64,000 bases of DNA from Elusimicrobiota bacterium (GTDB lineage: Bacteria; Elusimicrobiota; Elusimicrobia; UBA1565; UBA9628). The translations under genes were made by a program, and so were the position numbers. Below the pieces are notes generated by a model. That model did no database searches. It had not been told where the DNA came from and was given only the letters and a program-made list of their open reading frames with translations. The stretch is from the NCBI GenBank assembly GCA_016207665.1, contig JACQPG010000050.1:5519-69518 (forward strand), read 5' to 3'. Below are positions 5,700 through 60,688 of the stretch, piece by piece. Within the stretch, counting starts at the first letter, position 1; each line of letters opens with the position of its first letter.

Positions 5700-5701
5700 T
5701 G

Positions 5702-7468: not shown

Positions 7469-7521
7469 GCTCAATATCCTATCAAAAAATGCAGTCCGAG
7501 TCTCGATAGCTCGACGTGCTG

Positions 7522-8063: not shown

Positions 8064-8064
8064 T

Positions 8065-8102: not shown

Positions 8103-8123
8103 AATTTGGTCAAGGGGGTGTCG

Positions 8124-42843: not shown

Positions 42844-42844
42844 T

Positions 42845-43471
42845 ATGCCCTCGAAACTGACGGTCTGCGACCATCCGGTGGTTCAAGACAAGCTTTCCGC
42901 GCTGCGCGATAAGCATACCCGGCCGGACGATTTCCGATTGCTCATGTCCGAGATCAGCGCCCTCATGGCTTATGAAGTGCTCAAAGGCGTGCGCACCAGG
43001 CGCACCATGGTGCAGACCCCGCTGCGCAGCGCCAGCGCCGAATTTCTCGCCCAGCCCATCGCCTGCGTCGCGGTGCTGCGCGCGGGCTTGGGCATGCTCA
43101 CGGGTCTGCTCTCGGTCGTTCCCCGCTGCCGGGTAGGTCATATCGGCCTCTATCGCAACGAGGAGACGCTCAATCCCGTCCGCTATTACGTGCGCCTGCC
43201 CAAGGATCTCGCGGAGTCGTTCGTGATCTTGTGCGATCCGATGCTCGCCACCGGAGGCTCGGCCTGCGAGGCCATCCGCATCCTCAAGACCGACGGAGCC
43301 CGGCAGATCGTCCTCATGTCCGTGCTGGCCTGCCGGGCAGGGGTCAGGCGCGTGCACGAGCTCTTTCCCGAGGTCCCGATCTACGCCGCGGCGGTCGACC
43401 CCCAATTGAACAAGTCGGGGTATATCGTCCCGGGACTGGGCGACGCGGGGGACCGGTTGTTCTGGACCTGA
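42845..43471 (+). CDS. upp: uracil phosphoribosyltransferase
   Basis: 208 aa. HPVVQDKLSALRDK, VILCDPMLATGGSA, YIVPGLGDAGDRLF. Confidence 0.9.
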   Translation: MPSKLTVCDHPVVQDKLSALRDKHTRPDDFRLLMSEISALMAYEVLKGVRTRRTMVQTPLRSASAEFLAQPIACVAVLRAGLGMLTGLLSVVPRCRVGHIGLYRNEETLNPVRYYVRLPKDLAESFVILCDPMLATGGSACEAIRILKTDGARQIVLMSVLACRAGVRRVHELFPEVPIYAAAVDPQLNKSGYIVPGLGDAGDRLFWT

Positions 43472-43475
43472 ACCT

Positions 43476-44183
43476 CTAGGACGACGAAGAGGCGAGTTGC
43501 CGCAGCTTGGCCTCGTCGAGTATCAAGAGATCCTTATCCCGCTTGCGCAGCAACGAGCGTTGCTCGAAATCCTTGAGCAATCGCACCGCTGTCTCAAGCG
43601 TCAAGCCGGCCATCTCGGCGAGGTCGCGGCGCTTGAAGCCCGCCACCATGGGATGGGGCTTGCTCGAGCGCATCATGCGCAGGAGGGTGTCCGCAAGCCG
43701 TCCGCGCGCGGGCTTGAAAGCGATGTCCCGAGCCTTGTTCTCCCCTCGGCGCACGTCGCGGGCCAATTCCTTCATGAGCGCCCGGGCCGCCTGGGGAAAA
43801 CGCGAGAGGAAGTCGAAGAAATTCTTCTGATCCACCATGGAGACGGTGCTGGTTTCCAGGGCTTGGGCGGTTCCCATGTAGCTGCCTTCCTCGGAGAGAA
43901 GGGCCACGTGGCCGAGCAGGTCTCCGGGCGACTCGATGCGGGTGATGAGCTCCTGGCCGCTGCGCCCTGACTTGAATATTTTCACCTTACCCGAACACAC
44001 CACGAAGAGGGCCGCGGGCTGGGCGCCCTCATGGAATATCGACTCCCCCGGCTTGAAGCGATTTGCCACCCGCATCTCCTTCCAAACCTGCCGAGCCTCT
44101 GCCGTCCCCAGATAATCGAAGAGGCAATTCTTGCGATGAGGGCACCACTGGCAGTTGGGGGCTTCACGCTTTGAAAAGGGCAT
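43476..44183 (-). CDS. Crp/Fnr-family transcriptional regulator with N-terminal Cys cluster (FNR-like)
   Basis: 235 aa. CQWCPHRKNC near the N-terminus, cNMP-binding fold, C-terminal helix-turn-helix (RRDLAEMAGLTLETAVRLLK). Confidence 0.75.
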   Translation of the reverse strand: MPFSKREAPNCQWCPHRKNCLFDYLGTAEARQVWKEMRVANRFKPGESIFHEGAQPAALFVVCSGKVKIFKSGRSGQELITRIESPGDLLGHVALLSEEGSYMGTAQALETSTVSMVDQKNFFDFLSRFPQAARALMKELARDVRRGENKARDIAFKPARGRLADTLLRMMRSSKPHPMVAGFKRRDLAEMAGLTLETAVRLLKDFEQRSLLRKRDKDLLILDEAKLRQLASSSS

Positions 44184-44222: not shown

Positions 44223-44783
44223 CTACTCGCCCGACAAAAGACGCTTCAGGGAGCGCCAAAGAGAGGAGGCCGATAATCCCAGGTTGCGGAAGAACTCCAC
44301 GGCGCCTACCCCCAGTCCGCCTAAGAGCCCGATGAGAAAACCTACGGCGGCGCCAAGGGCCGCTCCCGCGTCGTCGCCTCCCTTTCCGCCATCGCGGACC
44401 AGGTTAAAGCCCCAGGCGGCGGCTCTCGGAATGGCGATGGCCAGGGTTCCCGGAACCGATATCAAGGCGCGATAGAGCCGGATGATAAAACCATCATCGT
44501 GCTGGCCGTGAATATGGTCCATTCCTGGGAAATCAGCCACGATATGCTCGAGCCAATTGTCGCCCTGCCGCATGGAAAGCGGCAACTCGGGCTCGGAGAC
44601 CGGCACGGGTCTGGGACCGGTCAGATCGGGGACGCCTCCCGCGGGAGCCTGGACGGGCAAGGCCTCGGCCGGCTGGTTCAGATCGAAATCCCTGGAGGCC
44701 GCGCTCCATGCCGACTCATCCGAGGGTGGTTCGGCGCCGAGAAGAGGCGCGGCAAGGCAGAGAAGGAGAAGGCGCAAGATCAT
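44223..44783 (-). CDS. secreted/membrane hypothetical protein with C-terminal glycine-zipper TM
   Basis: 186 aa. Signal peptide MILRLLLLCLAAPLLGA. C-terminus GAALGAAVGFLIGLLGGLGVGAV. Confidence 0.5.
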   Translation of the reverse strand: MILRLLLLCLAAPLLGAEPPSDESAWSAASRDFDLNQPAEALPVQAPAGGVPDLTGPRPVPVSEPELPLSMRQGDNWLEHIVADFPGMDHIHGQHDDGFIIRLYRALISVPGTLAIAIPRAAAWGFNLVRDGGKGGDDAGAALGAAVGFLIGLLGGLGVGAVEFFRNLGLSASSLWRSLKRLLSGE

Positions 44784-46069
44784 CGCGACACCCTCCGCCG
44801 GTAGGTCGGAGAACGCGGAGTTCGAGGGATCTCCTGTCCCGGGCTGTCCAGTTCCGACAGCAGGAATTTGAATCGCCGCGGGCCTCCGTCCGGCTCGAAA
44901 TAGTGGCGCGCGGCCACGCTCGCGATGATCTCATCCCCGATGGCGCCCTCGAGCGAACCGGCCTCGATGGCCACGTCCAACACCTCGACCGCTTTGCCGG
45001 CCCTGTTCGTGAAGTGGAGAGTCCAGCTTCCATTACCGGAAGGCCGAGCGATCGCGTTCAGGCCGTGAGGGAAGAAGAGCGCTTGGTCGACCGAGCCTAT
45101 GCGCACGGCCCGATAGGCGGGTCCTCCGAAAGAATCATGGGGCCGATCCGCCGGGAAATCGCCGAAGGAATCATGGATGATGAAATAAGCGCTCTCGGCC
45201 CACTCCGATTCATCGCGGTTGCGCGAGCAATCAAAGGGACCCTGTCCCGGCTTAAGGCAAAAGTAGCCGATGGCTGCCGTAGTGTGCGACCCGGTCAGCC
45301 GAGGATTCTTTTGATCCTCGAGTTGCACGTAAGCGATGCCCCATTTCTCTAGGCCCCGGACCAGGAGCTCAGCCTTATCCTGGGACGTTTTCCCCTCCAG
45401 GAAACGATTGGTAAAGAGTTGCACGTAACGGCCTTCCATCACGTCGTCGGGATGAAACGCCAGTTTCTCCCCCGTCACGGGATCCACCGCCACGTAGGGT
45501 CGATCCTCGATGAGAAGCTCGGCGAATCCCCTTGGCTGGATCGGGACCGAGATTCGCCTGACCGGATCCATGGTGAAAAGGCGGGGAACGAGCAGGTAGT
45601 ACGGGTCCTGGCGCTGCGCCCTCCGGAAATATTCCAGCTCTATGAGCCGCGGGTTCAACCCGCGCTCCTCGCGCCCATTATTGGCGTTGCGATAGAGCGG
45701 TAGCTCGCGGCCCAACTGCAACGCCCACCAATCATAAACCGTGCTTGCGCCGAAGGAGAGGCAGGTATAAGGCACATAATCCGATCCTGGGGTGTAGACC
45801 CATTCGGGCATCTTATGCCGCCGATTCGCGTTTCCGGACCTGATCGCCTCGTTGATCTCCTCCAGGCGCTCCAAGGTGAGTCCTTGGTTCTTGTGAAAGA
45901 GCTGTTCGTAGCCCTTGATCAGCACATGCTCCATCCCGGCCAGCGCCTCCAGGTCCAGGCCGAAGCGAGGCGCGGGGGCGTCATCGTGGCGCTCGGGATG
46001 GAGTACTCGGGGGGCGCTATGGGACAGCGTCGCGAGAAAGGCCGCAGCGATCAGGACGGCGAGCGTCAT
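44780..46069 (-). CDS. secreted hypothetical protein (possible Cys/His hydrolase-like)
   Basis: 429 aa. Signal peptide MTLAVLIAAAFLATLSHSA. Conserved-looking C (YTCLSFGAS) and H (GSHTTAAIGY) residues; no confident family match. Confidence 0.5.
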   Translation of the reverse strand: MTLAVLIAAAFLATLSHSAPRVLHPERHDDAPAPRFGLDLEALAGMEHVLIKGYEQLFHKNQGLTLERLEEINEAIRSGNANRRHKMPEWVYTPGSDYVPYTCLSFGASTVYDWWALQLGRELPLYRNANNGREERGLNPRLIELEYFRRAQRQDPYYLLVPRLFTMDPVRRISVPIQPRGFAELLIEDRPYVAVDPVTGEKLAFHPDDVMEGRYVQLFTNRFLEGKTSQDKAELLVRGLEKWGIAYVQLEDQKNPRLTGSHTTAAIGYFCLKPGQGPFDCSRNRDESEWAESAYFIIHDSFGDFPADRPHDSFGGPAYRAVRIGSVDQALFFPHGLNAIARPSGNGSWTLHFTNRAGKAVEVLDVAIEAGSLEGAIGDEIIASVAARHYFEPDGGPRRFKFLLSELDSPGQEIPRTPRSPTYRRRVSR

Positions 46070-46145: not shown

Positions 46146-46382
46146 TTATCGTATCACCGCCAGGACTCCGCGCGCCCGCCGGCCCAGCCCGTCGGTTCCC
46201 AGATAGAGATAGAGTCCCGAGGCCACTTTCTGACCCGCGTCGTTGTTGAGGTCCCAGCCGTCTTCGGCGGGGATGGTGCGCACCCAGCGGCCAGGCCCGT
46301 GATCCTGATCGGGGCCGAGCCATGGCGATCGGCGCGCCAGGGGTTGGGGAAAGCCAATACGGTTAAGCAGAGCACTGTCCAT
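46146..46382 (-). pseudogene. orphan fragment encoding a T9SS/FlgD-Ig-like C-terminal sorting-domain remnant
   Basis: 78-aa ORF ending ...WVRTIPAEDGWDLNNDAGQKVASGLYLYLGTDGLGRRARGVLAVIR matches the Por_Secre_tail/FlgD_ig consensus (WDG.D..G..v.sGvY.y). No room exists for the rest of the protein: the antiporter gene starts at 46454. Confidence 0.45.
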
Positions 46383-46453: not shown

Positions 46454-48469
46454 ATGATGACCGCCTCGGCGTTTCTCCAGGATCTCACGGTGGTATTGAC
46501 CACGGCCGCGGCCGTCATTTTCCTGTTCCGTAAGCTGGGCCAGCCCCCGGTGCTGGGATATCTGGCGGCCGGCTTGCTCATCGGCCCATACACCCCCCTT
46601 AGGATGTTCGTTTCGGATGTGCTGAGCCTCGAGGCCTTGGCGCAGATCGGAGTGATTTTCCTTCTCTTCGCCCTGGGAATCGAGTTCAATCTCGATCGGC
46701 TCTCAAAAATCGGGATCCGGGCCCTGATCTGCGCCCTCATCGAGGCGGCCATGCTCGTCCCCTTGGGCTATCTGGTCGGGCGCTGGCTGGGCTGGCGTCC
46801 CATGGAAAGTCTGCTGCTGGGCGGGATCGTGGCCCTGGCCAGCACGGCCCTGGTGGCCCGCACCTTGCTGGAGAGATCGCGCTCTCCCTCGGGTTGGGAG
46901 GCATTGGCCTCGGGCACGCTCATCGCCGAGGATATGATCGCCGTGCTGCTTGTGGCTTTTTTCTCATCGGCCCCGGCTTCCGACGGGCTGAGCCTGGCGG
47001 GGCTGTGGCCCTCCATGGTGCGTCTCACCGTGCTGGTCACGTTCGTGTTGATCATAGGGCTGCTCGCCTTCCCTAGGCTATTCGCGGCCTTGGAGAGGTT
47101 CGGCGTGGCCGAGATCAGGACATTGATGATCATCGGCATATGCTTCGGGATCTCGCTCATCACCGAAAAGCTCGGTTTTTCGGCCGCCCTCGGCGCTTTC
47201 TTGGCGGGCGCGACCGTGGCCACGGGCGGATCGGCCGGCCGGCTCGACCAAGTGGTCACGCCTTTCAAGGACCTTTTCGGCGCGGTGTTCTTCGTTTCCG
47301 TGGGCATGTTGATCGATCCGGCTTGGGTGCTCTCGCATTGGCAGATCACCTGCGCTCTGGGGTTGGCGGTGATAGCGGCCCGGGCCTATGCCAATTTCAT
47401 CGCTTTCCTGGCGGTGGGCGAGACCAAGTCCAGCTCGGCCCAGGCGGCGCTGGCACGCCTGCCGATCGGGGAGTTCTCCTTCATACTGGCCCAGGTCGGA
47501 CAGGCCCAGGGGGTTTCCGACAAGCCGGTCTATCCCCTGGCCGTCACTCTTTGCCTCTTCACCACCACGGCGTCTTCCTTTCTGTTTCCCCGCTCCCTCA
47601 AGCCCGGAGGGCTGGCCTGGATATTTCCGGGCTTTAATGGAGCCTGGTTGAGCCGTTATCAGCGCCGGGTGAAGGACCTGGCCTTGCCCGAGCGCCAGGC
47701 GCTTGTGTGGCGCTTGATTAGGCCCTCCCTCTTGCAGATCTTGATCAATGGTCTGATCATCACGGGGCTCTTTTTCGCCGCCCCGGCCGTCGAGAGACGT
47801 TACGCCTGGTCCTTGGATATTCCGGGAGCATCCTGGCTCGCCGCGGCGATGCTGTCCCTCCCGTTCCTCCTCGCCCTTTTCCGCAAGACGCACGCCGTCA
47901 TGCTCGTCATCCTCGAGGCCGCGATCTCGCAGCCGGGCCGGGACCCGGTCGGGCTTAACCCCTTCTGGGCCAGGCTCGCGCTGGGCTTCTCCATGCTGGT
48001 GGTGGGAGCCTGGTATTTGAGCTTGAGCGCCGATCTACTGCCGGGATGGCCCCATGCCGCTCTGCCCGTCTCGCTGTTGGCCATCGCCGTGCTCTTGCTT
48101 TGGCGCTACATGAACCGCCTCTATTCCCGAATCCAGGTGGCCTTGCGCGACGGGCTGGCGCGCAAGCATGTCGAGCCGGAGGCCGCGACCAAGGCCCTGC
48201 TGCACTTCGTCAGCGCGTTGACCCCGGAGAGTGTCCATATCAACTCAATCGTGCTCGAGCCCGGCTGCTGGGCTCAGGGCCGATCCATCCGAGAGATCGA
48301 GTTGAGGTCCAAGTCTGGGGCGAGCATTCTCCAGATCAGCCGCGGTGGCGAGATGCTCCCCGCGCCGGGTCCGGAGCTGCGTCTTCACGAGGGCGACAAG
48401 CTTCTCTTGATCGGAGAGGATGAGCAGATCGAAAAAGCCCGAGCCGTGCTCTTCACCGGCGGCCTTTGA
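46454..48469 (+). CDS. CPA2-family cation:proton antiporter with C-terminal TrkA-C/RCK_C domain
   Basis: 671 aa. 12-13 TMs (Kef/NapA-like N-terminus). C-terminal ...IREIELRSKSGASILQISRGGEMLPAPGPELRLHEGDKLLLIGE. Confidence 0.85.
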   Translation: MMTASAFLQDLTVVLTTAAAVIFLFRKLGQPPVLGYLAAGLLIGPYTPLRMFVSDVLSLEALAQIGVIFLLFALGIEFNLDRLSKIGIRALICALIEAAMLVPLGYLVGRWLGWRPMESLLLGGIVALASTALVARTLLERSRSPSGWEALASGTLIAEDMIAVLLVAFFSSAPASDGLSLAGLWPSMVRLTVLVTFVLIIGLLAFPRLFAALERFGVAEIRTLMIIGICFGISLITEKLGFSAALGAFLAGATVATGGSAGRLDQVVTPFKDLFGAVFFVSVGMLIDPAWVLSHWQITCALGLAVIAARAYANFIAFLAVGETKSSSAQAALARLPIGEFSFILAQVGQAQGVSDKPVYPLAVTLCLFTTTASSFLFPRSLKPGGLAWIFPGFNGAWLSRYQRRVKDLALPERQALVWRLIRPSLLQILINGLIITGLFFAAPAVERRYAWSLDIPGASWLAAAMLSLPFLLALFRKTHAVMLVILEAAISQPGRDPVGLNPFWARLALGFSMLVVGAWYLSLSADLLPGWPHAALPVSLLAIAVLLLWRYMNRLYSRIQVALRDGLARKHVEPEAATKALLHFVSALTPESVHINSIVLEPGCWAQGRSIREIELRSKSGASILQISRGGEMLPAPGPELRLHEGDKLLLIGEDEQIEKARAVLFTGGL

Positions 48470-48598: not shown

Positions 48599-49405
48599 AT
48601 GCCCTTCCTGACTCGGGCCGCTCTTCGCCTGACGGATTTCTCCGGGCGCTATGTTCCCGGCGCCTTCGTCATCGCGTGCCTGTTGACCGCGATCACCTTC
48701 GCCCTGGCGCTGTCCGTGGCCGGCCGCTCTGTGGCGGCGACCGTCGGCTATTGGGGAGACGGAGTCTGGACCTTGCTCGAGTTCGGCATGCAGATGGCGT
48801 TGATCATGGTCACGGGCTCCATACTCGCCGACTCGCCTCATTTGCGCCGCGGGCTCGACGCCTTGGCCGCGGTCGCAGCCTCGCTGTTGCTGTTGGCGTG
48901 GGCTCTCTATCCCAGCCGCCGCGAGGATGTCTTTACGTTGAGCGCGGAACAGCTTCAGGCTCTGGAGGACGAGAGCCCTCCCGAGCCATTCTCGCCGCCC
49001 TCCCGTTTTATCGCTTGGGCCGAGGACAGCTGGGCTCTCTGCGCGTTCTTGGGCGGGCTGGGTCTGGCCTGGCTGGCCAGGGATTGCGCGCTTCACGGCA
49101 TGGCCCTCACCCTCAACAAGCTCAATCTGGCTTTCTTTTCAGCGGCCTTGCTGCTTCATCCCAGTCCACGCTCTTTCGCTCGTTCCGCCGAGAAGGCGGC
49201 GGGCTACGTTCATGGGGTCATCGTCCAGTTTCCGCTGTATGCGGGCATGTACGGCATTATCAAGGGTTCGGGCCTCGACCAGGCGATCGGCGCCTGGTTC
49301 GTGAGCTGCGCGACCCCGGCGACCTTCCCTCTGGTGGTCTATTGGTATTCCGGGGTGTTGAACTATTTCATACCTTCCGGAGGATCGAAGTTCGCGGGCA
49401 TTTAA
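48599..49405 (+). pseudogene. short-chain fatty acid transporter (AtoE family), apparently C-terminally truncated
   Basis: 268 aa from MPFLTRAALRL. AtoE-like motifs (FGMQMALIMVTGSILADSP, FIPSGGSKF). Family members are about 440-470 aa; here a stop at 49403 is followed 20 nt later by a convergent GNAT gene. Confidence 0.5.
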
Positions 49406-49425
49406 TTGGCGGGACGGCCTGGAGA

Positions 49426-49941
49426 TCACGGCCGCCACTGATGCTTAAGAAGGCCGAACAGCACTTCATTGACGGGATGGCCATTGATGAGATAATGCTC
49501 CCGCAAAAGGCCCTCCCTTCTGAAACCGAGCCGGTCGAGCAACCTGCAGGACGCGAGGTTCTGGTCGTGCACGAAGGCGATCAATCGGCGCAGCGACGAC
49601 TCTTGGAAGGTCTTTTGAAGCAACAGGCGGACGGCGGCCGTGCCGATCCCCAATCCCTGGTACTGCTCATCGATGCCGTAACCGACCTCCGCGTAGAGCA
49701 TCGAGCGGCTGATATTCTTTATGGAGACGTTGCCTACCACCGAGTCATCGGTCTTGATGAACCAACGATAGCGCTCGAATCCCGGCTCGGCCAGGTCGCT
49801 TCCCTCGGAGGCCAGCATCTTGTCTATATCCATGATGCTCATCGGCTCCAGCGGGTTATGGAGGGTCGCCGAAGGTTGTTTCCTCCATTCGAAGAACAGC
49901 TTGGCGAAGTCCGGCCTATAAGGGACAAGCTCGATCTTCAT
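49426..49941 (-). CDS. GNAT-family N-acetyltransferase (RimL-like)
   Basis: 171 aa. Acetyl-CoA binding QGLGIGTAAVRLLL. Confidence 0.8.
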   Translation of the reverse strand: MKIELVPYRPDFAKLFFEWRKQPSATLHNPLEPMSIMDIDKMLASEGSDLAEPGFERYRWFIKTDDSVVGNVSIKNISRSMLYAEVGYGIDEQYQGLGIGTAAVRLLLQKTFQESSLRRLIAFVHDQNLASCRLLDRLGFRREGLLREHYLINGHPVNEVLFGLLKHQWRP

Positions 49942-49988
49942 CGATTGATTATGCCAAAGGCGGGTCTTTCAGTCGATGAGTTTGTCGT

Positions 49989-50561
49989 TTAGGGCGGCAA
50001 GGCCTTGCCGAGAATGCCGGCTCGCCCCACCAATCCCAGCCTTCCGCTGTCGAGCGATCCCCCGGGCTGATTGCCCAAGAGAAGATACGCTTCGGGCGGG
50101 ATACAGCTATCATGGCTTTTCTGGTATGCGGAAAGCACGCTCCGGGCCCGCTCATCGAAACGGTAGGCCATCCCCTCGCTGTTGACGGCCAAGGCTCCAT
50201 TGATCCAAAGAGACCAGCTTCCGGCCTTCTCTTTGAGTTCGAAGCGATCCCCGGGAACGGCCTTGACTATCTTGATCGACGGGGTCTCTCTCCCCGAGTG
50301 GCGGAACAACACCCACTCTCCCCTTCTGGGTCGGCGGCAGCGATAATAACCCATCAGCACGTCCACCTTCTGCCCGGGCTCGAGCAGCCCGGCCATGGAG
50401 CGGCCGCGCACCGAGCGCTGCTCGAGCGCCACCAGGCAGGCCAATAGGCCCGCGCCTATCTGCGGCACAAGGTCTGATAGACGCAACGGTAACGGCAGCC
50501 TGGAAAGCCCGAGGCGATCCACACCGGCCAGCTGCTCAGGCCGGTCCAGCCCGACGGGCAA
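49989..50561 (-). CDS. small S26-family signal peptidase I (TraF/SipW-size)
   Basis: GRSMAGLLEPGQ (Ser-Met catalytic box), IKIVKAVPGDRF, YLLLGNQPGGSLDSGRLGLV (GDNRxxSxDSR-like). The 5' end overlaps the upstream gene; the true start may be the GTG at 50468. Confidence 0.65.
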   Translation of the reverse strand: MPVGLDRPEQLAGVDRLGLSRLPLPLRLSDLVPQIGAGLLACLVALEQRSVRGRSMAGLLEPGQKVDVLMGYYRCRRPRRGEWVLFRHSGRETPSIKIVKAVPGDRFELKEKAGSWSLWINGALAVNSEGMAYRFDERARSVLSAYQKSHDSCIPPEAYLLLGNQPGGSLDSGRLGLVGRAGILGKALPP

Positions 50562-50965
50562 GTCAGGGGCAATATCGCGGGACAGGTCGGGTCGCCGCGG
50601 CAGATGGCCGCGTCGGGCGTGATATGGGCGTCGCTCCCGACCGTGGCCGCGTCCACGTATTCCTTATTGGCCGCGTCGCTATCGAGCAGCGGCAGACCCA
50701 CGTTTTGTACGCGATAGATCGCCGCGCCTCCCACCAAAGAAAGGCTCAGGTCGCCGTTGACCTCGAGCTTGGTCGCCGGGCTGCTGGTGCCTATGCCGAC
50801 GTTCTGCCCGTCGCGCGCCAGGATGGAACGGCCGGTGGTGATGATCTGCGTGTAGACGCCGGAAGGAGCCGGATAGTAGGTGGAAAGCGTGACATTCTCG
50901 GAGGCGGTGTGTTCAAAGGCGAAAAAAACGAGAGCAAAAGCCCAAAGAGCGTTTTGTCGTTTCAC
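50456..50965 (-). CDS. secreted Cys-rich protein with phage tail-fibre-like motifs
   Basis: 169 aa. Signal peptide; YYPAPSGVY, GQNVGIGTSSPATKLEVNGDLSL and ANKEYVDAA motifs as seen in tail-fibre-domain proteins. Eight Cys in the last 45 residues. Confidence 0.5.
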   Translation of the reverse strand: MKRQNALWAFALVFFAFEHTASENVTLSTYYPAPSGVYTQIITTGRSILARDGQNVGIGTSSPATKLEVNGDLSLSLVGGAAIYRVQNVGLPLLDSDAANKEYVDAATVGSDAHITPDAAICRGDPTCPAILPLTCPSGWTGLSSWPVWIASGFPGCRYRCVYQTLCRR

Positions 50966-51036
50966 GAAGAGTTGTAATATAGATAATTAAGCTCCTTCCT
51001 TCAAGCCCTTTGCCGCGACCTCGTGGTGCACAGACC

Positions 51037-51255
51037 CTATTTGCTTTTCGTGTTCTGGAACATCTTCCCGAAGTCTTTAAGGCTTTGGGGGACTGCGACT
51101 TCCATGTCCCGCTCGGCGGGGATGTGGGGACCGATTTTTTTGATAGTGACTTTCATGCCGGCTTCGGAAATCATGGCGGCCAGGAAAATCCCGAATAATC
51201 CGGCGGCATATAGGCTGAAATGTCTTTTGATCATCGCCACCTCGCTTTTCCCCAT
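51037..51255 (-). CDS. small hypothetical membrane protein
   Basis: 72 aa with one hydrophobic helix (LYAAGLFGIFLAAMI). Lies in a low-GC stretch. Weak call. Confidence 0.25.
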   Translation of the reverse strand: MGKSEVAMIKRHFSLYAAGLFGIFLAAMISEAGMKVTIKKIGPHIPAERDMEVAVPQSLKDFGKMFQNTKSK

Positions 51256-51347
51256 ATCAGCTCAATATTTGGAGGCGGGGACGATGTAGGGTATGAGAAC
51301 GGGTTCTTGCGGCGCTGTCTCCCAGCCCGGCGATCCGGAGGCGATCC

Positions 51348-51914
51348 TTAACGCTCAGCGCTAGCTAGATTAGGCAAGGGATGGCGCTCAAAAAAATCCC
51401 ACATCGCCTCGCTGGCTGAAATATCGGTGGTAGTGTGTCCGAGACGGCGTTCCAATATGGCCGTGCCGCCGGGCCAGGTATGGCCGCCCCCCTCCACTTG
51501 GCAGTAGACCAGATCGGTCCCCGCTGAGCATGGGCCATGGCTGGTGCAGGTGACTTCTCCCTTCTGGTACGTGAGCCGGCCCGTGGACGAACACTGATTT
51601 CGCTTGACCCAAGACCGGATCGTATCGGCCATGGGAGGGAAGGCCCTGCGTGGACCCGCTTTTGGATTCAATCCGCCTTCGATCGGTACGGATTTGTCCC
51701 TGGTTCCATGAAATATCATGAGCGAGATAGGACGCGTTGGACGGCAGTCCTCAAGCATGGGCGCAGCCGCGACCGGAGCGATCGCAGCCACCTTGTGCGA
51801 TAGATCGCAGGCCAATCGGTAAGCCATGATGCCTCCATTGGAGAGCCCGGATATCATGAACAACAAGAATGTTATGAGAACTATATAATGCGCTCGTGGA
51901 AACAAGCAGAACAT
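51348..51914 (-). pseudogene. 5'-truncated PHB-depolymerase-family esterase (LpqC-like alpha/beta hydrolase) fragment
   Basis: The ORF begins only about 22 codons before the nucleophile elbow GLSNGG. The rest matches LpqC-like esterases (RLACD...AAIAPVA...IFHGTRDKSVP...GGGHTWPGG). The roughly 110 N-terminal residues with signal peptide are missing. The 5' end abuts the tRNA-His 3' end. Confidence 0.6.
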
Positions 51915-51944
51915 TAAAATTTGGTCATGGTGTTCCGGGCAAAA

Positions 51945-52022
51945 TGGGGTGACTGACGGGATTTGAACCCGCGACCTCGTGGTTCACAGCCACGCGCTCT
52001 AACCAGCTGAGCTACAGCCACC
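51945..52022 (-). tRNA. tRNA-His (anticodon GTG) with encoded G-1 and CCA
   Basis: Minus-strand sequence G-GTGGCTG-TA-GCTC-AGCTGGTTA-GAGC-G-CGTGG-CTGTGAA-CCACG-AGGTC-GCGGG-TTCAAAT-CCCGT-CAGTCAC-C-CCA folds as a canonical cloverleaf. Extra 5' G pairs with C73, as expected for His. Confidence 0.9.
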
Positions 52023-52066
52023 GCAAAGCGGTGCAGTCGCCGAAGGCGGCGGTCACCGGCGAGAAA

Positions 52067-52540
52067 TTATAGCACTATGCGAGTGACCGTCTCCAGGACG
52101 GCGAAGGCGTGCCCCTTGGGCCTCGAGCGTAGGCATTTCTTCCAGAAAGCGATCTCGTTGGGCGACTGTTGCGAAAGATAGTGGATCCACAGCCGAGCGA
52201 GCAGCCCGCTGAAGGCCCATTGCGAAATGCGTTCATGCAGCGTGCTCCTGTGGCCGAAATCCTGCGGGAGGCGGCGCCAAGAGGCTCCATGCGCCAGAAG
52301 CCAAAGCAGCGCTTCGAAGCAGAGGCGATCATCATGTCTGGGTCGTCCCCCCTTTCTGAGGTGTTTAAGTTTCGGTTCTCTCTTTGGCGGGGGTAGATTT
52401 CTGGCGAGTTGGGTCCATTGTAGGTTGCTTAAAGGCAACCAGGCCCGGCATGCTGGGGACGATTTCAGACATTCCGAAGAGGGGTTTTCGGACAGAGGCA
52501 GATCTATGGATTCTCCGGTTGTTTCGGCGTTAAAATCCAT
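52067..52540 (-). mobile_element. IS5/IS1182-group transposase N-terminal (DUF4096-like) fragment; DDE domain absent
   Basis: LSNLQWTQLARNLPPPK...GRPRHDDRLCFEALLWLLAHGASWRRLPQDFGHRSTLHERISQWAFSGLLARLW matches the DUF4096 pattern of IS5-family OrfA. The ORF stops 45 nt from the tRNA-His 5' end. Confidence 0.6.
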
Positions 52541-52588
52541 TTATTTTGATACGATCGGCTGAAAAAATAGTTCGCTGTCCGAAAACCC
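52482..52588. repeat. 14-bp perfect inverted repeat pair GGGTTTTCGGACAG / CTGTCCGAAAACCC separated by 79 bp
   Basis: Seen in sequence at 52482-52495 and 52575-52588, at the 5' side of the IS5-like fragment in a lower-GC spacer. Confidence 0.6.
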
Positions 52589-52645
52589 TCCTCGAGCAAA
52601 TCGGAAAATTCGGGCGGAGCCCAAGAGAGAAGGCTCGCGGAGCGA

Positions 52646-53599
52646 CTAGGTGGAGGCCGTCGTCGCGGGTCCGGCCGGAGAGCTTTGCTGGGGAGCGCCC
52701 ATAAGGAGGGCGATGGTGCCGGACAAGGCGATGATGCCGCCGATGATTTGGCGGACTGACGGCAGCTCTTGGCCCATCAAGGGCGTCATCAGCAGGACCA
52801 GGAGAGGGTTCTGGGCCACGATCAGCGAGACCCGGGACACGCCCAGGGCGCGCACGGCCTCATAGCGAAAGCCCATGTTGCAAAACGGTCCGATCAGTCC
52901 CCCCGCCGCCAACACCGCCCAAGCCCAGGATGAGCCGACGGTGGGCCATTCCCGCAGCCAAATCAGCCCGGGCATGCTGATCAGGAAGTAGACCACATTG
53001 CGCAGATGGGCCAGGGCCCAGGGATTCTCGTCACGCATCAGCCGCTTCATCCAAAAATGGCTGAGCGCCCAGGTGAGGCTGGCGACCAGCGATAGGGCGA
53101 TCCCCAGCCGCTGGCCGCGCTGGGCGGTGTAGGCCATGAGCGCCAGGCCGGCTAGTATGAGCAGAGTGCCTGCGGCCTCGGCGCGGGTGTAGCGCTCTCC
53201 CAGCCAGCCGACCCCGATGAGGACGACGAAGAGCAGCCCGATCTGGCTCAAGAAGGAGCTCATGGCCGCGGGAAGATGCGAAAGAGACCAGAAAAAGGCC
53301 AGGGCCGACACGGTGTCGAGCGCGAAGAAGACCCCGAGCGCCTTGAGATTGGCGCGCCGGAAGCGCCAGGGAAGAGTCTCCGGCCGGGCCCGAGCCATGG
53401 CGGCGAAAGGGAACAGTCCGAACAGGTACCAGTAGAACAGGAATGACCAGAACGGGACAAGGCGAAGGCCCTCCCGGCCCAGCACGAAGACCAGGGCCGA
53501 GGCGTTGAGGCTGGCGAAGGCGAAGAATAGGCCTCGGGATCGGCTCACCCTAAAATACAAGCACTTTGCCGGCGCGCAGGTGTAGGCCTTTGGACCCAA
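52646..53599 (-). CDS. EamA/DMT-superfamily transporter
   Basis: 317 aa, about 10 TMs, two EamA-like halves. Confidence 0.75.
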   Translation of the reverse strand: MGPKAYTCAPAKCLYFRVSRSRGLFFAFASLNASALVFVLGREGLRLVPFWSFLFYWYLFGLFPFAAMARARPETLPWRFRRANLKALGVFFALDTVSALAFFWSLSHLPAAMSSFLSQIGLLFVVLIGVGWLGERYTRAEAAGTLLILAGLALMAYTAQRGQRLGIALSLVASLTWALSHFWMKRLMRDENPWALAHLRNVVYFLISMPGLIWLREWPTVGSSWAWAVLAAGGLIGPFCNMGFRYEAVRALGVSRVSLIVAQNPLLVLLMTPLMGQELPSVRQIIGGIIALSGTIALLMGAPQQSSPAGPATTAST

Positions 53600-53657: not shown

Positions 53658-54854
53658 ATGAGGATCGTCTGCGCCGCGTTATTGGCTCTGGCCCTGAGCC
53701 TTCCGGCCGGCGCCGCCTTATCCGCGGCCCAGATCCATATCCAGGCGGGCGTGCGGCATTTCGACAGGGGCGAGTTCGGCTTGGCGATCGAACAGTTCGG
53801 CCGCTCGATGCGAGCCCGGGGCGGGAGCGCGGCCTATTTCCTGCTGGGCTATTCCCATTTCATGCGCGGATTCGCGGGAGGCAGCCCCGAGAACGCGGAT
53901 CGCCAGGACTCGACCGAGGCCATCGCGGCCTTCTCGCTGGCCGTGGCTCTCGATCCGGAGCTTAAGGCCGTGACCGAGCCGTATCGGCTTTACCTGAGCC
54001 TGGCGCTTTGCCATGAGGCGCTGGGCGCCTCGGAAAAGGCGATCGCCGCCTACAGCAAGGCCTTCGAGCTCGCCCCACGCAATCCCCTGATCCCGCTCTA
54101 CGCCGCGAGGCTGCGTTTTTCGCGCAACGAAACGGATAAGTCGATCGCCAATTTGAATCGAGCCCTCGAGACCGCGCGCCGGAACGGGAAGGAGCGGGAA
54201 CTCATCGATTTCATATCGAGGCATCCGATGTTCTCGCTGATGCGCCGCAGCCGTCCCCACCAAGAGCTTCTCAGACCGTCGGAGCAGGAGAGCGAGACCA
54301 TGGTGGTGCAGGCGGAGAGCCGGGCCGACATGTTCGGCCTGAGGGATTCCGTGCGTTCCGAGGCCTCCGTGGTCGCGGAATTCCCCAAGAGGGACAAGGC
54401 CGTGCTCGATAAGCTGGGAGAGGCCAACGTCGCCTTCCGCTCCCAGCGTTACGCGGACGCTCTGGAGGCTTACTCCAAGGCCTTGGTCCTTAACGAGGCT
54501 TCCGGAGTGCTTGGACCGGGTCAGGTCGCCTTCATCCATGAGCGGATGGGGACGGCCAGCTACAGGCTGGGCTTGTCGCAGGACGCGGTGAGTTGGCTGA
54601 GGCGATCCGTCCATTCGCTGCCGTTCAATCCTTCGGCGTATTATCAGCTGGCCCTCGCGTATTCGGTGCAGGGACGTTTTCACGAGGCGATGAAGGCCTT
54701 GCGAGAGGCCCTGAGCACCGCCCCTTCGGTGCCGGAGCTGCGCAAATACATGATGCTGGCCCGCACCGATGGCGAGCTCGAGCCCCTGCGCGATCTTCCC
54801 GGCTTTCAGTCCATGCTTTCGGAATTCCGGCAGCGCGCCGGAATCGGGCGCTGA
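53658..54854 (+). CDS. secreted TPR-repeat protein
   Basis: 398 aa. Signal peptide MRIVCAALLALALSLPAGA. AGGT 6 nt upstream of the ATG. Confidence 0.7.
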   Translation: MRIVCAALLALALSLPAGAALSAAQIHIQAGVRHFDRGEFGLAIEQFGRSMRARGGSAAYFLLGYSHFMRGFAGGSPENADRQDSTEAIAAFSLAVALDPELKAVTEPYRLYLSLALCHEALGASEKAIAAYSKAFELAPRNPLIPLYAARLRFSRNETDKSIANLNRALETARRNGKERELIDFISRHPMFSLMRRSRPHQELLRPSEQESETMVVQAESRADMFGLRDSVRSEASVVAEFPKRDKAVLDKLGEANVAFRSQRYADALEAYSKALVLNEASGVLGPGQVAFIHERMGTASYRLGLSQDAVSWLRRSVHSLPFNPSAYYQLALAYSVQGRFHEAMKALREALSTAPSVPELRKYMMLARTDGELEPLRDLPGFQSMLSEFRQRAGIGR

Positions 54855-56434: not shown

Positions 56435-57070
56435 ATGACATCGTTTCTGGCGGCGCTGCTGCTGACGGCGGTATCGCCGGGGGCCGAAACAGGCGCCGCG
56501 CGGGAGCTCGGTCTCGCGGCTCGGACAGTCCGCCGTGACCGTGGAGTTCGAGCTGGGACGGGATATCGATCTGGCGCTCCAGGACGTCCAAGCCAAGGTG
56601 GCGCAGTTCACCACCATCGCCGGAGTGGGCGACGTGCAGCTGGGCGGCTATATCGAGCCGAGCCTGAGGGTATGGGTGGACGCGAGCAAGCTTCACGAGC
56701 GTTATCTGACCTTGACGACGTCATCGCGGGGCGCAGCGGCTCCCCTATTTGGAAGACCTTCCGTATCGGCGACGTGGCGCGGGTGGAGGACGGTCTGGCG
56801 GATATGCGCCGCCTGTCGCGCAATAACGGCAAGCCCGCCGTGGACCTCGGGATCAAGAAACAACGCGGCTCCAATTCCGTGGCGGTGCTCTTGTCCCTGC
56901 TCGAGGCCTGTCCGATCCGGCTGAGGCCCATATTGATGACCTCGGTGGCCACCATCGCCGCCGCGGTGCCGCCAGCCTTGGGCTTCGGGCCGGGATTGAG
57001 AGCCGCAAACACCAGGACTCCGTCTCGGAGGTGTTCAAGCAGTTGGGCCAGGGACCATCATCCGCCGGTA
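56435..57070 (+). pseudogene. highly degraded RND efflux transporter (AcrB/CzcA family) remnant
   Basis: Two overlapping frames carry AcrB-like pieces: TVEFELGRDIDLALQDVQAKVAQ (porter domain), MRRLSRNNGKPAVDLGIKKQRGSNSVAV, and the far-C-terminal ILMTSVATIAAAVPPALGFGPG, all compressed into about 640 bp instead of about 3.1 kb. Confidence 0.6.
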
Positions 57071-58147
57071 TAGCGCCTCGGTCCTCGTGATCGCGGTCTG
57101 CGAGTCGAACTCGGATAAGCGCTCGCGGCGCCAGCGTTGCGCCCAAGCCCGGACTTGCTCCTGGTGATCCAAGGCCCATTCCAGGCGGGCGGCCAGGGCC
57201 GCGGCATCTCCGGGCGGGAACAGGAAATCAGCCGAGCCGGGCCCCAGCAACTCGCGATTGCCGGCCACATCGCTGGCGATGACGGGTATGCCCTGGCATA
57301 ATGACTCACGCAAGGCGCCGGAAAGCCCCTCCCCTTTGACGGCCGCATTCACGCTCAAGGTCAAGGTCGAAAGCAGCTCGGGAATATCGGAGCGGAACCC
57401 CGCAAGAACGACGCGGTCCTCCAAGCCGAGCTCCTTGACTCGCTGCCGCATGAGCGCTCCGTCGGTATCGCGGCCCGCGAAGATGAAACGCCCTTGGCGT
57501 CCGCGGGTCTTGAGCAGGGCCGCGGCCCGCAGCAGCACTTCCTGGCCCTTCCATTCAGAGGCGTTGGCGATCTTGCCGATCACGGCCATCCCATCTCTCA
57601 ATCCGAAGGCCTTCTTGATTCCCGCGTCGGGCTCCCGCGGCCGGAAACGGGCCGAATCGACGCCGCTGCGTATCACCGACACGCGGGAGGGATCGACTCC
57701 CGAGTCCACCAATATCCCCTTGACCGCTTCCGCCACGGCCACGATCTGGTCGATGAGCCGGCTTTGATATTTCCAACGGCTGAAGGGGTTTTGCCCCGGA
57801 GGGAATGAGACCCGGCGGCTGACGATGAGCACGGGGCGCTCGCCCATCAGACGCAGCAGCGCCGAGGAAAGCAGGCACACCGCGTGAGAACGGTTGTGAT
57901 GAGCATGCACCACGTCCACTCTCTCGGACTTGATGAACCGCGCCAAGGTCCATGCCGAGAAAATGTCATAGTCCTCCTTGAGCCCGACCGCGAATGTCCT
58001 GAAACCGAGCTCGCCGGCCCGGCGCTCCAGCCCGCTGCCGGGCCGGCACGCGATGAGCACCCGCCAGCCGCGCTGGCTCAAGCCTTGGGAGAGGGCCAAA
58101 AGCTGCGCCGCGCCCCCGGACCATTCGTTCGATTCGGAGACCTGCAA
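57035..58147 (-). CDS. family-4 glycosyltransferase (group 1)
   Basis: 370 aa. N-terminal ...NEWSGGAAQ, C-terminal Glycos_transf_1 (EGLSGALRESLCQGIPVIAS). TTG start; the true start may be a few codons upstream. Confidence 0.75.
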   Translation of the reverse strand: MQVSESNEWSGGAAQLLALSQGLSQRGWRVLIACRPGSGLERRAGELGFRTFAVGLKEDYDIFSAWTLARFIKSERVDVVHAHHNRSHAVCLLSSALLRLMGERPVLIVSRRVSFPPGQNPFSRWKYQSRLIDQIVAVAEAVKGILVDSGVDPSRVSVIRSGVDSARFRPREPDAGIKKAFGLRDGMAVIGKIANASEWKGQEVLLRAAALLKTRGRQGRFIFAGRDTDGALMRQRVKELGLEDRVVLAGFRSDIPELLSTLTLSVNAAVKGEGLSGALRESLCQGIPVIASDVAGNRELLGPGSADFLFPPGDAAALAARLEWALDHQEQVRAWAQRWRRERLSEFDSQTAITRTEALYRRMMVPGPTA

Positions 58148-58161
58148 TACCGTCGGATTTT

Positions 58162-59082
58162 CTATGCGGATGGCGTCTTTCCGGCGAGGCTCTTGAGTAT
58201 ATTGTCGACGTCGTAGGCCGACAGCAGAAGCAGCGCGTCGCGGCCCTCGACGCGGGCGTAGTAGTAGGAGGGCTTTTCCCCTTTGGCGGCGACCTTGGCC
58301 TTGCCGATCATCCAGCGCGCCTTGCGCTCGCCGGCCTGCAGCTCCACGGAGATCAGGGGCTTGGCCAGGCCGGTCTCCGATACCTTTTCCGAGCCCGAGC
58401 CGAAATCGGAGACGCGAAGGGCGGACAAGGTGGAGATCAAGGCGTCGAGCCTGTCCTTGGGAAGGGAGCCCGACCAGCCCGCGCTGGATTTCCTGAGCTC
58501 GAATGCCTGATTGCCGTAGGTGAGGCGTATCGAGCCGGCGGAGCCGAGATCGATCGAGGAGAGCTGTCTCTGCCGGAAATCGTTGGCCGACCTGTTCATT
58601 TGATAGGAATCGACGCCCGAGGCGATGTAGACGGGCTTGTCCGATTCGTAACGGAAATAATGGCTGTCATGACCCATGGCGGTCTTGCCGAAGTATCCGT
58701 CGAAAACGGGCTCGGATTTTCCCTGAACGAAAAGGCGCACGCGCGAGGCGCTCGAGTCATTGAGCTCGTAATCGGGATAGGATGAAGGATCATCGGAGAG
58801 CCGGGAGCCGATCGACAGCCGGAAGAGGCCGGTCAAGAGCTCCTGGCAGGCCGAGGGATCGGCCCCATCCGGGGGCTGGGCCAGGCGCCAGCTCCCATCG
58901 CGGCTTTCCAATGAAACGGACCGTTCACCCTTCCTTATCTCGATGCGGGACACCGAGCCCTTATCCAGCTCCTTGAGCGGTTCTTGGGCCTTGGGAGGCC
59001 GGGAGGATCTCCAAAGCAACAAGCCGGCAGCGCCCGAAAGGATCAGGGCGCAAGAGGCTAGGACGAGAAAGCGCTTAGGCAT
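58162..59082 (-). CDS. DUF4340-domain protein (GldG-associated)
   Basis: TM FLVLASCALILSGAAGLLLW, then a periplasmic body. Start at the ATG at 59082. Confidence 0.6.
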   Translation of the reverse strand: MPKRFLVLASCALILSGAAGLLLWRSSRPPKAQEPLKELDKGSVSRIEIRKGERSVSLESRDGSWRLAQPPDGADPSACQELLTGLFRLSIGSRLSDDPSSYPDYELNDSSASRVRLFVQGKSEPVFDGYFGKTAMGHDSHYFRYESDKPVYIASGVDSYQMNRSANDFRQRQLSSIDLGSAGSIRLTYGNQAFELRKSSAGWSGSLPKDRLDALISTLSALRVSDFGSGSEKVSETGLAKPLISVELQAGERKARWMIGKAKVAAKGEKPSYYYARVEGRDALLLLSAYDVDNILKSLAGKTPSA

Positions 59083-60688
59083 GGGAGGAGGCGGCGGGCT
59101 CATGGGTCCGCGTGGTCTCGGGATTGTCGGCGTAAAGCCCAGGCAGTCGCGCCCTCAGCGAGCGCTGCCGATAGTAGAAGGCCGAGCCCGAAAGCAGGAG
59201 AAGGGCCGGAAGGAAAAAGATCAGGCCGTATTTGGCCGCGCTGCGCTGAAAATCCGAGAGCCGCCGCAAGGGCCTGAAGCTGAACCCCTTGGCGCGTATC
59301 GACAACAGCGACTCGTCCTGGAGAGACCATTCTATGAGGTTCATCAAGAACGCGATGTTCGAGGCCTTGTTGGCCAGGTTCTGATGCAATTGATAGGCCG
59401 TTCCCACCACCACCACACGGCCGGCCGCGGCCTTGTCGGCGCCCGCCTCGGTAGCCGCGACGGTGGAGGGCGCGAGCTTGTAGAAGTCTCCCTCCAAAAC
59501 GCCGGCCAAGGAGAAGGGGCCCTTGTCGGCGCTCTCGAGCTTTTCGAGAGGCTGTCCGGGTTGAATGCTGTTGCCGGTATGGTGCCAGCTTGCCCGGCTC
59601 GACTCGACTAGGGAGGTGAACTTCACCGGACTCGCGGGCACGGCCGCCGCTTTAAGTGGATGCACGAAGGGAAGCGTGACCGCGTCGATGCGGCGGGTGG
59701 CGGGGTGCTCTCGGTTAATCTGGGTCGCCACCGGAAGGAATGGATACTCCTGGATGCGCATCGCCACGAACATGCCGTATTGGGTCTCCATCTGTATGCG
59801 TTCGGATTGGGCGTCGACCACGAAGCCCTCGCGCAGGTCCAGGCCCCATTTTTGCAGCAACGCGGAGAGCCCGCTTTCCTGCGGCATGGCGTAGAAGGCC
59901 TGCAAATTGACGGCGCGCCGGTTGAGCAGCAAGCCCAGAGGCCGGCCCGCGTTGACCCAGGCCTTGAGGCGCTCGATCTCGCCGCTCTTCAAGGGCTGCG
60001 TGGGTCCCAGCAGCCAGAGCGCGTCCAACTTGGCCGGGAGAGGCTTGTCCAGGCTCACGGTCTCGATGTTCATCTGCTCGCTCAGGCCCTGGAAAAGATG
60101 CTGCAGTCCGGGATCGGATCCCGTTTTCTCGCCGTGTCCGCCGACCAGGCCCAGCGTCTTCATTTGAGGGACGGTCAGCTTCTTGATGCGCCGCGTCAGA
60201 TCGTACTCCAGACCGGCCGTGTTCTCAAGCACGGGCAGGGTCTCGGTGCGTCCTTTATAAAGGAACACCGCCCCCATATAGGCTTCCTTTACCTCGAACT
60301 TGTCCCGGGCCATCACGTTGATCTGCACGGGCGCTATCCCGGCGCTCTGGGCCTCGCGCTGCCGCTCGGGCGTGTCCGGATTGATGAACTCGAGCTTGAG
60401 CCTTCCCCGGCCGGAGCTCTTATACTCGCCGAGGAGATCCTTGAGATATTGCTCCTGAAGCCCGTAGGGAGGAGGCAATCGCGGCGTGTAATAGACCTTG
60501 ACGAGCAGCGTATCCTTGATCTGGTCGAGCACGGCCCGGGTGCCGTCGGAGATGGAATAGACCTTTCCGGAGGAGAAATCGAATCGGGCGTAGAAGAACT
60601 GGGACAGCACGTTGGTCGCGGCCAAGGCCGCGAGAAGGAGAGCCGCCCCGGTCACGGAGAAGGCCAGGCCCCGGATCTTGCGATTCAT
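59075..60688 (-). CDS. GldG-like ABC-transporter auxiliary protein (ABC_transp_aux)
   Basis: 537 aa. N-terminal TM, C-terminal TM (LIFFLPALLLLSGSAFYY). Typical GldG family architecture. Confidence 0.7.
   Translation of the reverse strand: MNRKIRGLAFSVTGAALLLAALAATNVLSQFFYARFDFSSGKVYSISDGTRAVLDQIKDTLLVKVYYTPRLPPPYGLQEQYLKDLLGEYKSSGRGRLKLEFINPDTPERQREAQSAGIAPVQINVMARDKFEVKEAYMGAVFLYKGRTETLPVLENTAGLEYDLTRRIKKLTVPQMKTLGLVGGHGEKTGSDPGLQHLFQGLSEQMNIETVSLDKPLPAKLDALWLLGPTQPLKSGEIERLKAWVNAGRPLGLLLNRRAVNLQAFYAMPQESGLSALLQKWGLDLREGFVVDAQSERIQMETQYGMFVAMRIQEYPFLPVATQINREHPATRRIDAVTLPFVHPLKAAAVPASPVKFTSLVESSRASWHHTGNSIQPGQPLEKLESADKGPFSLAGVLEGDFYKLAPSTVAATEAGADKAAAGRVVVVGTAYQLHQNLANKASNIAFLMNLIEWSLQDESLLSIRAKGFSFRPLRRLSDFQRSAAKYGLIFFLPALLLLSGSAFYYRQRSLRARLPGLYADNPETTRTHEPAASSHA

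Follow-up and report, generated by a model that had tools for sequence, protein, structure and literature searches.

Gene stumps, an IS5 remnant and a displaced 21-base tRNA copy around the tRNA-His gene of a groundwater Elusimicrobia contig

Genes and gene remnants beside tRNA-His

In a contig from a groundwater Elusimicrobia metagenome-assembled genome (MAG; contig JACQPG010000050.1, locus tags HY549_), a stretch of 64 kb, here called the window, carries a tRNA-His gene that is surrounded by broken as well as complete protein-coding genes. An initial annotation had interpreted positions 49406-52645 around this gene as one decayed mobile-element islet, i.e. the product of an old integration at the tRNA followed by deletional decay, and all of the features that it listed could be found at or near the positions where it had placed them. 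These features are collected in Table 1, together with the genes that frame them and a number of related genes from other loci.

Table 1. Features of the tRNA-His region, in window positions, and homologs of the Cys-rich gene, in positions of their own loci (ORF, open reading frame; IS, insertion sequence; att, attachment site; loci and contigs used for comparison are designated L followed by a number)
Feature	Positions	Strand	Basis
NaH, Na+/H+ exchanger with TrkA_C (frame marker)	46454-48469	+	Pfam; orthologs 51-53% identical beside tRNA-His in L002-L004
atoE' (atoE/SCFA-transporter pseudogene)	48599-49405	+	Pfam SCFA_trans PF02667, homolog alignment
GNAT acetyltransferase, intact	49426-49941	-	Acetyltransf_3 positions 2-138 of 138, E 4.9e-20
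Small signal peptidase I (S26)	49989-50486/50561	-	56.9 bits in TIGR02227 (cut-off 47)
Secreted Cys-rich protein, 169 aa	50456-50965	-	Homolog family, alignment
Promoter-like site TTGAAG, 17 nt, TATATT, upstream of Cys-rich gene	50976-51004	-	Consensus match only
Displaced tRNA-His fragment, candidate distal att remnant	51013-51033	-	Repeat; blastn-short E 8.6e-4
72-aa ORF, one hydrophobic segment, 51% GC, without family assignment	51037-51255	-	ORF call
PHB-depolymerase-family esterase remnant, C-terminal ~167 aa	51348-51854 (ORF 51348-51914)	-	NCBIfam NF050058, homolog alignment
AT-rich spacer between tRNA 3' end and esterase stump, origin unassigned	51855-51944	.	Composition
tRNA-His(GTG), intact, with encoded G-1 (52022) and CCA	51945-52021 (52022 with G-1)	-	ARAGORN; Rfam 70.8 bits
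Promoter-like site TGGAGA, 18 nt, TG, TATAAT, upstream of tRNA	52066-52095	-	Consensus match only
IS5-family OrfA-like ORF (DUF4096, PF13340)	52067-52540	-	Pfam E 3.4e-19, positions 1-76 of 76
Perfect 14-bp inverted repeat GGGTTTTCGGACAG / CTGTCCGAAAACCC	52482-52495 / 52575-52588	.	79-bp spacer
EamA/DMT transporter, intact, between tRNA-His and TPR gene	52646-53599	-	Pfam; this position in no relative
TPR protein (frame marker)	53658-54854	+	Immediate divergent neighbor of tRNA-His in three relatives, one gene off in L002
AcrB', AcrB/RND efflux pump stump, ~640 bp	56435-57073	+	PF00873 positions 164-202 and 234-295 of 1021, two overlapping frames
Cys-rich homologs upstream of radical-SAM gene	L022/L023 5001-5795; L024 2043-2891; L025 2158-2919; L029 2938-3681		

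The gene next to the tRNA 3' end is an esterase that, as initially annotated, has lost its N-terminal part. Its ORF starts 30 bp from the tRNA, homology begins only at 51854, and the remaining sequence covers positions 108-276 of the 276 in the NF050058 profile, while its alignment to the closest homolog (P0002, 323 aa, 58% identity) is restricted to residues 156-315. The loss, which had been given as about 110 codons, corresponds to ~107 codons when measured against the profile, but to ~155 against the nearest homologs. The stump lacks the N-terminal half of the alpha/beta-hydrolase domain (Pfam Esterase_PHB), with its signal peptide, HGGG motif and WNGGDCCG region; it retains Ser25, Asp73 and His145, residues in invariant alignment columns that we take to be the usual Ser-Asp-His catalytic triad. 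Almost all of the 813 homologs are about 290-330 aa long, and the few with a named source belong to Actinomycetota, Planctomycetota and Chloroflexota, with none from Elusimicrobia. Another homolog, P0006, was found in an ordinary chromosomal context. The AT-rich DNA between the stump and the tRNA (37.5% GC over 51849-51944) contributes the spurious ATG with which the esterase ORF opens, along with its first ~20 codons. Beyond the stump lies the tiny membrane-protein-like ORF of 72 aa, which was also called as a gene in an independent contig covering this part of the locus (L010, see below).

At the far end of the interval, atoE' was initially described as C-terminally truncated, and it indeed ends at position 378 of the 453 in the SCFA_trans profile. 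What that description had missed is an additional, internal loss: the pseudogene covers profile positions 2-93 and 249-378, with positions 94-248 missing, and alignment to its closest homolog (P0242, 445 aa, 61% identity) shows that ~109 aa have been deleted internally, in frame, and that the last ~73 aa are absent as well. Full-length relatives are 430-490 aa long, and the score of 161 bits is far under the TIGR00366 cut-off of 575.75. A reading of the esterase and atoE as naturally short genes is ruled out by the lengths of their homologs; judged from these alignments, both fragments are real pseudogenes. The possibility that an inversion had split the two genes was also considered, and no missing half of either was found in the window. 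The convergent GNAT gene, separated from atoE' by a 20-bp gap, is in contrast complete over its profile.

On the 5' side of the tRNA, only the DUF4096 part of an IS5-group transposase had been recognized, and this was borne out, since the match to the IS5 model NF033580 is confined to positions 5-86 out of 258. It lacks the DDE part, since 45 bp past the stop codon the tRNA already begins. NCBI annotates the ORF as a 123-aa transposase starting from TTG 52438. A search of 5.8 billion proteins returned only the protein itself and no full-length copy; plasmid-borne IS5-family transposases are ~30% identical over nearly the entire 123-aa OrfA. The locus resembles those IS5-family elements that combine a DUF4096 OrfA with a separate DDE OrfB (NF033580) in its DUF4096 domain and in the short, GGG-initiated inverted repeats nearby, but differs from them in having neither a DDE domain nor an inverted-repeat pair at IS distance (at least 0.8 kb). 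The ORF is a dead stump. As for the annotated 14-bp inverted repeat, it is the sole such pair there and lies upstream of the DUF4096 domain, with no pair bracketing the transposase gene. With arms only 79 bp apart in this position, it cannot represent the two ends of a full IS. The region 52482-52588 may be either a 107-bp, internally deleted derivative resembling a miniature inverted-repeat transposable element, with which the repeats of an IS5-family relative in Pandoraea fit (22 bp, 752 bp apart and starting GGGTCAG), or two IS ends facing each other, with which a weak outward extension of the similarity, to arms of 33 nt at 73%, fits. The ~30% identical plasmid relatives did not settle which side of the repeat is the outer one.

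Two Logan contigs (run SRR12113385) were found to be 100% identical to the window at 48763-50268 (L001) and 50288-52023 (L010), and the junctions of atoE' with the GNAT gene, as well as those connecting the Cys-rich gene, the displaced tRNA fragment, the 72-aa ORF, the esterase and the tRNA, have thereby been assembled independently. This bears on the question of whether the contig is chimeric at the tRNA, in which case the truncations and the inversion described below would be joins between strains or loci. The source is a MAG, L010 stops precisely at the tRNA 5' end (52023), both Logan contigs break inside the S26 gene (50268/50288), and exact-protein look-ups for NaH and the TPR protein gave no record. 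On the other hand, the truncation junctions are reproduced without a single difference, the internal atoE deletion is in frame, and the blocks flanking the region on both sides are still collinear with relatives. A chimeric assembly is therefore regarded as very improbable, and the breaks in the Logan contigs could stem from strain heterogeneity or low coverage.

The displaced tRNA copy and the neighborhood in relatives

The tRNA-His gene is the only tRNA called by ARAGORN in the 64 kb, and in the stretch from 48 to 54 kb Rfam identified no further RNA family. The IS5 ORF overlaps at its 3' end with the promoter-like site upstream of the tRNA. The initial annotation had raised the idea of an attR, i.e. 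a partial direct repeat of the tRNA 3' end further downstream, and a direct repeat is present: CCGCGACCTCGTGGTGCACAG at 51013-51033 is identical in 20 out of 21 positions to 51969-51989 in the tRNA, 956 bp downstream of it. The repeated part corresponds to tRNA positions 33-53; it opens with the first anticodon-loop base and closes within the T stem, in its 5' strand. When the window was compared to itself, this was the unique non-tandem direct pair of 21-mers with at most one mismatch. Its edges are sharp, and a permissive gapped local alignment extended neither side. The best chance matches between tRNA and locus in four relatives, introduced below, were 10-14 nt long. The copy is situated within the 71-bp intergenic gap between the 72-aa ORF and the Cys-rich gene and overlaps no conserved protein domain. 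Searches for another copy of the tRNA 3' 25-mer and for the rest of the displaced copy (tRNA positions 54-77) gave no match in the window, the region upstream of NaH included.

A tRNA gene accompanied by a fragment of itself, with foreign DNA separating the two, is the published signature of genomic islands inserted by an integrase, and the anticodon loop is a recognized crossover subsite (PMC4383910). The tDNA islands of Islander (Hudson, Lau & Williams 2015, PMC4383910), and degraded islands whose integrase has been lost, show the same arrangement as seen here, with an intact tRNA gene and its cognate fragment on one replicon, the fragment being in the same orientation, downstream and starting at the anticodon loop. 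The intervening DNA is here also compositionally atypical and absent from relatives.

With respect to composition, 51034-51944 has 55.2% GC compared to a window mean of 62.8%, and only 1.4% of equal-sized windows are this low; in the IS zone (52022-52645) the corresponding figures are 56.4% and 3.5%. The GC content at third codon positions (GC3) is 0.64 in the esterase stump, 0.69 in the 72-aa ORF and 0.66 in the IS5 ORF, as opposed to values of 0.77-0.84 in the Cys-rich gene (0.77), the GNAT gene (0.78), atoE' (0.79), NaH, the EamA gene (0.84) and the TPR gene. From this contrast on either side of 51013-51033 it follows that the compositional drop coincides with the boundary marked by the 21-mer. 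The low-GC stretch of the initial annotation is thus real. As strong evidence of mobile DNA it had to be downgraded, since ordinary genes in the window dip further; a full-length, ordinary Opp substrate-binding protein gene (5702-7474, minus strand) is the one with the least GC anywhere in the window, reaching 51% (z = -4.5).

The same neighborhood was examined in four relatives (L002, L003, L004 and L011). These are distant, with 42-59% protein identity, and no close relatives were found; a metagenome scan for closer ones yielded just L011 (44% identity) and L012 (36%). All four have the common gene order PNP, thymidine phosphorylase, UPRTase, Crp on the minus strand, TPR on the minus strand and tRNA-His on the plus strand, and in L002-L004 the next gene after the tRNA is NaH, also on the plus strand. 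The arrangement is compact, with spacers in L003 of only 20 bp between tRNA and TPR and 28 bp between tRNA and NaH. None of the atoE, GNAT, S26, Cys-rich, 72-aa, esterase, IS5 or EamA genes occurs at the tRNA-His loci of the four relatives. In this respect the initial idea of an islet interrupting the tRNA-His neighborhood was supported, as were its esterase and atoE fragments, given the full-length homologs mentioned above.

The window itself is collinear with the four relatives from PNP to Crp (40718-44183) and again in a right-hand block (58362-61315). The ~14 kb between these blocks (44.2-58.4 kb) are lineage-specific and rearranged: NaH has kept its orientation, while the module of TPR and tRNA-His is inverted and now situated to the right of NaH and atoE'. 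AcrB' is a further pseudogene in this rearranged zone, 4.4 kb from the tRNA and hence outside the interval initially claimed.

Two other genes in the zone deserve mention. Where the relatives have TPR and tRNA-His, the window has a gene for a secreted-looking protein of 429 aa without Pfam, NCBIfam or PHROG match (44780-46069, minus strand). Between this gene and NaH is an ORF of 78 aa (46146-46382, minus strand), whose end, WDLNNDAGQKVASGLYLYL..., resembles a T9SS/FlgD-type C-terminal domain and weakly matches a PorZ C-terminus (E 0.024); this may be another gene scrap at the rearrangement junction. Insertions were also seen in L002, where a gene of 463 aa (7654-9045) and one of 251 aa (9244-9999) flank the tRNA-His. 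The former appears caspase-like by eye. With these insertions of its own on either side of the tRNA, L002 shows that the site varies in that lineage as well.

Proposed layers of insertion and rearrangement

The broken genes, the IS stump and the 21-base tRNA copy are debris of an ordinary kind, left by old insertions of mobile DNA and by rearrangement in a phylum that is poorly sampled. We consider it fairly probable that the tRNA-His region as a whole is a composite genomic scar, being neither a functioning system nor a single element, and that it was built up in several layers. In the first of these, an integrative element of the tyrosine-integrase type would have recombined with tRNA-His at the anticodon loop. 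Its remains would be the regenerated tRNA, ~90 bp of AT-rich arm DNA, the esterase cut at codon ~156, the 72-aa ORF and the displaced tRNA positions 33-53, while the integrase, the remaining cargo and the 3' portion of the tRNA copy would have been lost by deletion. We infer that 51013-51033 is the truncated, displaced fragment that bounds this 0.9-kb remnant.

A second layer is the IS5 stump, which is an event separate from the integration remnant. The IS5-family element inserted upstream of the tRNA independently and was subsequently reduced to OrfA and inverted-repeat debris. The third layer is the rearrangement, which as such is shown by the comparison with relatives. Compared to the ancestral order of Crp, TPR (minus strand), tRNA-His (plus strand) and NaH (plus strand), the TPR-tRNA module is inverted and has its place beyond NaH and atoE', which either two nested inversions or an inversion combined with a transposition would bring about; the breakpoints fall at damaged or foreign DNA. 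What is left in the form of intact genes constitutes the fourth layer, i.e. the tRNA with its promoter-like site, the cassette of Cys-rich protein and S26 peptidase, the GNAT gene and the EamA transporter, all of which presumably are functional.

A number of observations weigh against this reading, and in particular against its first layer. According to the rules of Islander (PMC4383910), the fragment would be rejected, since it is internal to the tRNA (33-53) and stops short of the 3' end; the interval of 956 bp is outside the length filter of 2-200 kb, and it does not pass the integrase filter either. With these three filters failed, the interval can be called only a remnant. No integrase or DDE domain was detected in Pfam and NCBIfam scans of the ORFs, and all intergenic gaps are at most 105 bp, too small to hide one, just as the initial annotation had stated in finding no integrase, recombinase or intact transposase. 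An exact search of IMG/VR with the 3' half of the tRNA-His (45 nt) gave 0 matches, distant blastn searches with 50966-51944 against phage and plasmid collections gave none, and no intact parent element was found. The closest homolog of the esterase, P0002, is surrounded by methyltransferases, without mobile genes or a homolog of the 72-aa ORF. Ordinary genes elsewhere in the window reach GC dips that are equal or deeper, and the S26 gene has a GC3 of 0.63 although it is part of a cassette shared with another contig (L027, see below). Furthermore, at 42-59% amino acid identity the relatives do not allow the order and polarity of the events to be fixed, and for junctions beyond 48763-52023 the support comes from a single MAG assembly.

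Some of these points would also fit with a history without any site-specific integration, in which the locus is a hotspot of IS-mediated or illegitimate recombination, and the 21-mer a by-product of partial duplication or deletion of the tRNA when it moved together with the TPR gene. The IS5 stump and the inverted-repeat debris do adjoin the tRNA, the module has been relocated, several gene stumps occur including AcrB' as far as 4.4 kb away, the integrase is absent, and the fragment is internal, whereas integration predicts one from the 3' end (PMC4383910). Such a by-product would need two independent breakpoints in a duplicated tRNA, one of them placed precisely on the anticodon loop's 5' edge, while integration requires one later deletion only. 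The direct orientation and downstream position of the fragment fit the configuration of islands (PMC4383910), and the drop in GC and GC3 is specific to the stretch from the tRNA to the 21-mer. We hence find recombination without integration unlikely and retain the composite scar with an integration remnant as the preferred reading.

For annotation purposes, the esterase, atoE, IS5 and AcrB ORFs should carry a pseudogene flag. It is moreover possible to place a boundary of foreign DNA at the 21-base tRNA fragment in spite of no surviving integrase, and an essential tRNA gene with its neighbor has in this uncultivated Elusimicrobia lineage been relocated inside an otherwise collinear block. The current understanding is left unchanged by this, since it is well known that tRNA genes serve as landing sites and as hotspots of rearrangement. 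Of wider interest is only the Cys-rich protein family with its S26 or radical-SAM partners.

The cassette of Cys-rich protein and S26 peptidase

The Cys-rich protein was initially annotated as secreted and carrying phage tail-fibre motifs, and the S26 peptidase as being of TraF/SipW size. While the former is indeed a Cys-rich secreted protein, it resembles tail fibres only weakly (60 residues matching PHROG at E 5e-4, without Pfam match), and it belongs to what looks like a cellular family. This comprises 188 homologs, of which one is a paralog encoded by the MAG itself; wherever a source is named, it is an Elusimicrobia MAG, and all contexts examined are chromosomal. The conserved N-terminus of the family reads SENVTLSTYYPAPSGVY...VGIGT..P..KLEVNG in the alignment, and one homolog carries the Pfam domain Gp34_trimer. 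An AlphaFold model of the protein was too poor for a fold search (pLDDT 50.7, pTM 0.20). The peptidase is an S26 enzyme as annotated, but stays far under the cut-offs of the TraF models, with scores of only 19 bits in TIGR02771 (cut-off 100.25) and 17.8 bits in NF010412 (cut-off 186). With either of its possible starts, GTG 50468 or TTG 50486, the gene overlaps the stop codon of the Cys-rich gene upstream.

The best homolog of the Cys-rich protein over the full architecture, P0231 (35% identity, E 5e-22), is encoded in an unrelated metagenomic contig of 76 kb and 36% GC (L027), where it is followed after 52 bp by an S26 peptidase gene whose product of 190 aa shares 34% identity with that of the window (E 1e-33). 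The pair, which is hence common to very different genomes, is there (5001-6237) situated among genes for ribonucleotide reductase, phosphoglycerate mutase, MnmG and LpxB. Since it thus occurs beside housekeeping genes, the Cys-rich and S26 genes are, judging from this conserved context, a two-gene cellular cassette and not phage or conjugative debris.

This evidence also bears on how much of the locus an insertion at the tRNA can account for. If the whole of 49406-52645 were a single old element at tRNA-His, integrative or conjugative, with the Cys-rich, S26, GNAT, esterase and IS5 genes as its cargo, it would be understandable that none of these genes is found near tRNA-His in the four relatives, that the entire interval is GC-poor (58.1% against 62.8%) and that weak matches to tail fibres and TraF occur. 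Yet the sole repeat of the tRNA lies inside the interval, at 51013-51033, with none near 49406, and the IS5 stump is 5' of the tRNA, i.e. outside any island integrated at the 3' side. The Cys-rich and S26 genes have their counterpart pair in a housekeeping context, with all named family members being Elusimicrobia, the S26 peptidase scores above the cut-off for signal peptidase I and below that for TraF, and the GC3 of the Cys-rich gene, the GNAT gene and atoE' is host-like. A single element of this extent therefore seems quite unlikely. There is good evidence that an old insertion at tRNA-His explains ~0.9 kb, namely the esterase stump and the 72-aa ORF, and not 3.2 kb, and it is for the former part that the initially proposed integration and deletional decay can be upheld.

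Another partner of the Cys-rich family was seen in four other loci, in which a radical-SAM gene is found directly downstream of the homolog; in two out of the four an HxsD-type gene is present as well. L022-L024 carry the HxsD-type gene together with a gene for a protein of 391 aa, which in L024 has a weak match to prepilin peptidase. Taken together, these gene neighborhoods suggest an uncharacterized secreted family, known mainly from Elusimicrobia, with dedicated maturases. We tentatively put forward, as a possible though rather doubtful extension, that 49989-50965 is a functional unit in which a Cys-rich, tail-fibre-like surface protein would be matured by its own S26 peptidase. If true, the family has two alternative dedicated maturation partners (S26 and radical-SAM), and the tRNA-His scar is merely the resting place of one copy of the cassette. 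Dedicated gene pairs of signal peptidase and substrate are exemplified by SipW-TasA of Bacillus subtilis, in which a secreted-protein gene is likewise directly coupled to a gene for a small S26-family peptidase. The pair in the window differs by having no known sequence relationship to TasA or SipW, most members of the Cys-rich family go with radical-SAM genes instead, and the cleavage, at a predicted HTA|SEN site, is here putative.

Lastly, two repeats were noted elsewhere in the window. The only inverted repeat of at least 21 nt with at most one mismatch has arms of 23 nt located 4.4 kb apart (31621-31643 and 36010-36032). A tandem repeat with a period of 27 nt (GGGCGGCCGAGGGAGCCGGCTTTGCC...) is found at 32736-32804, and the tetranucleotide composition is atypical around there.

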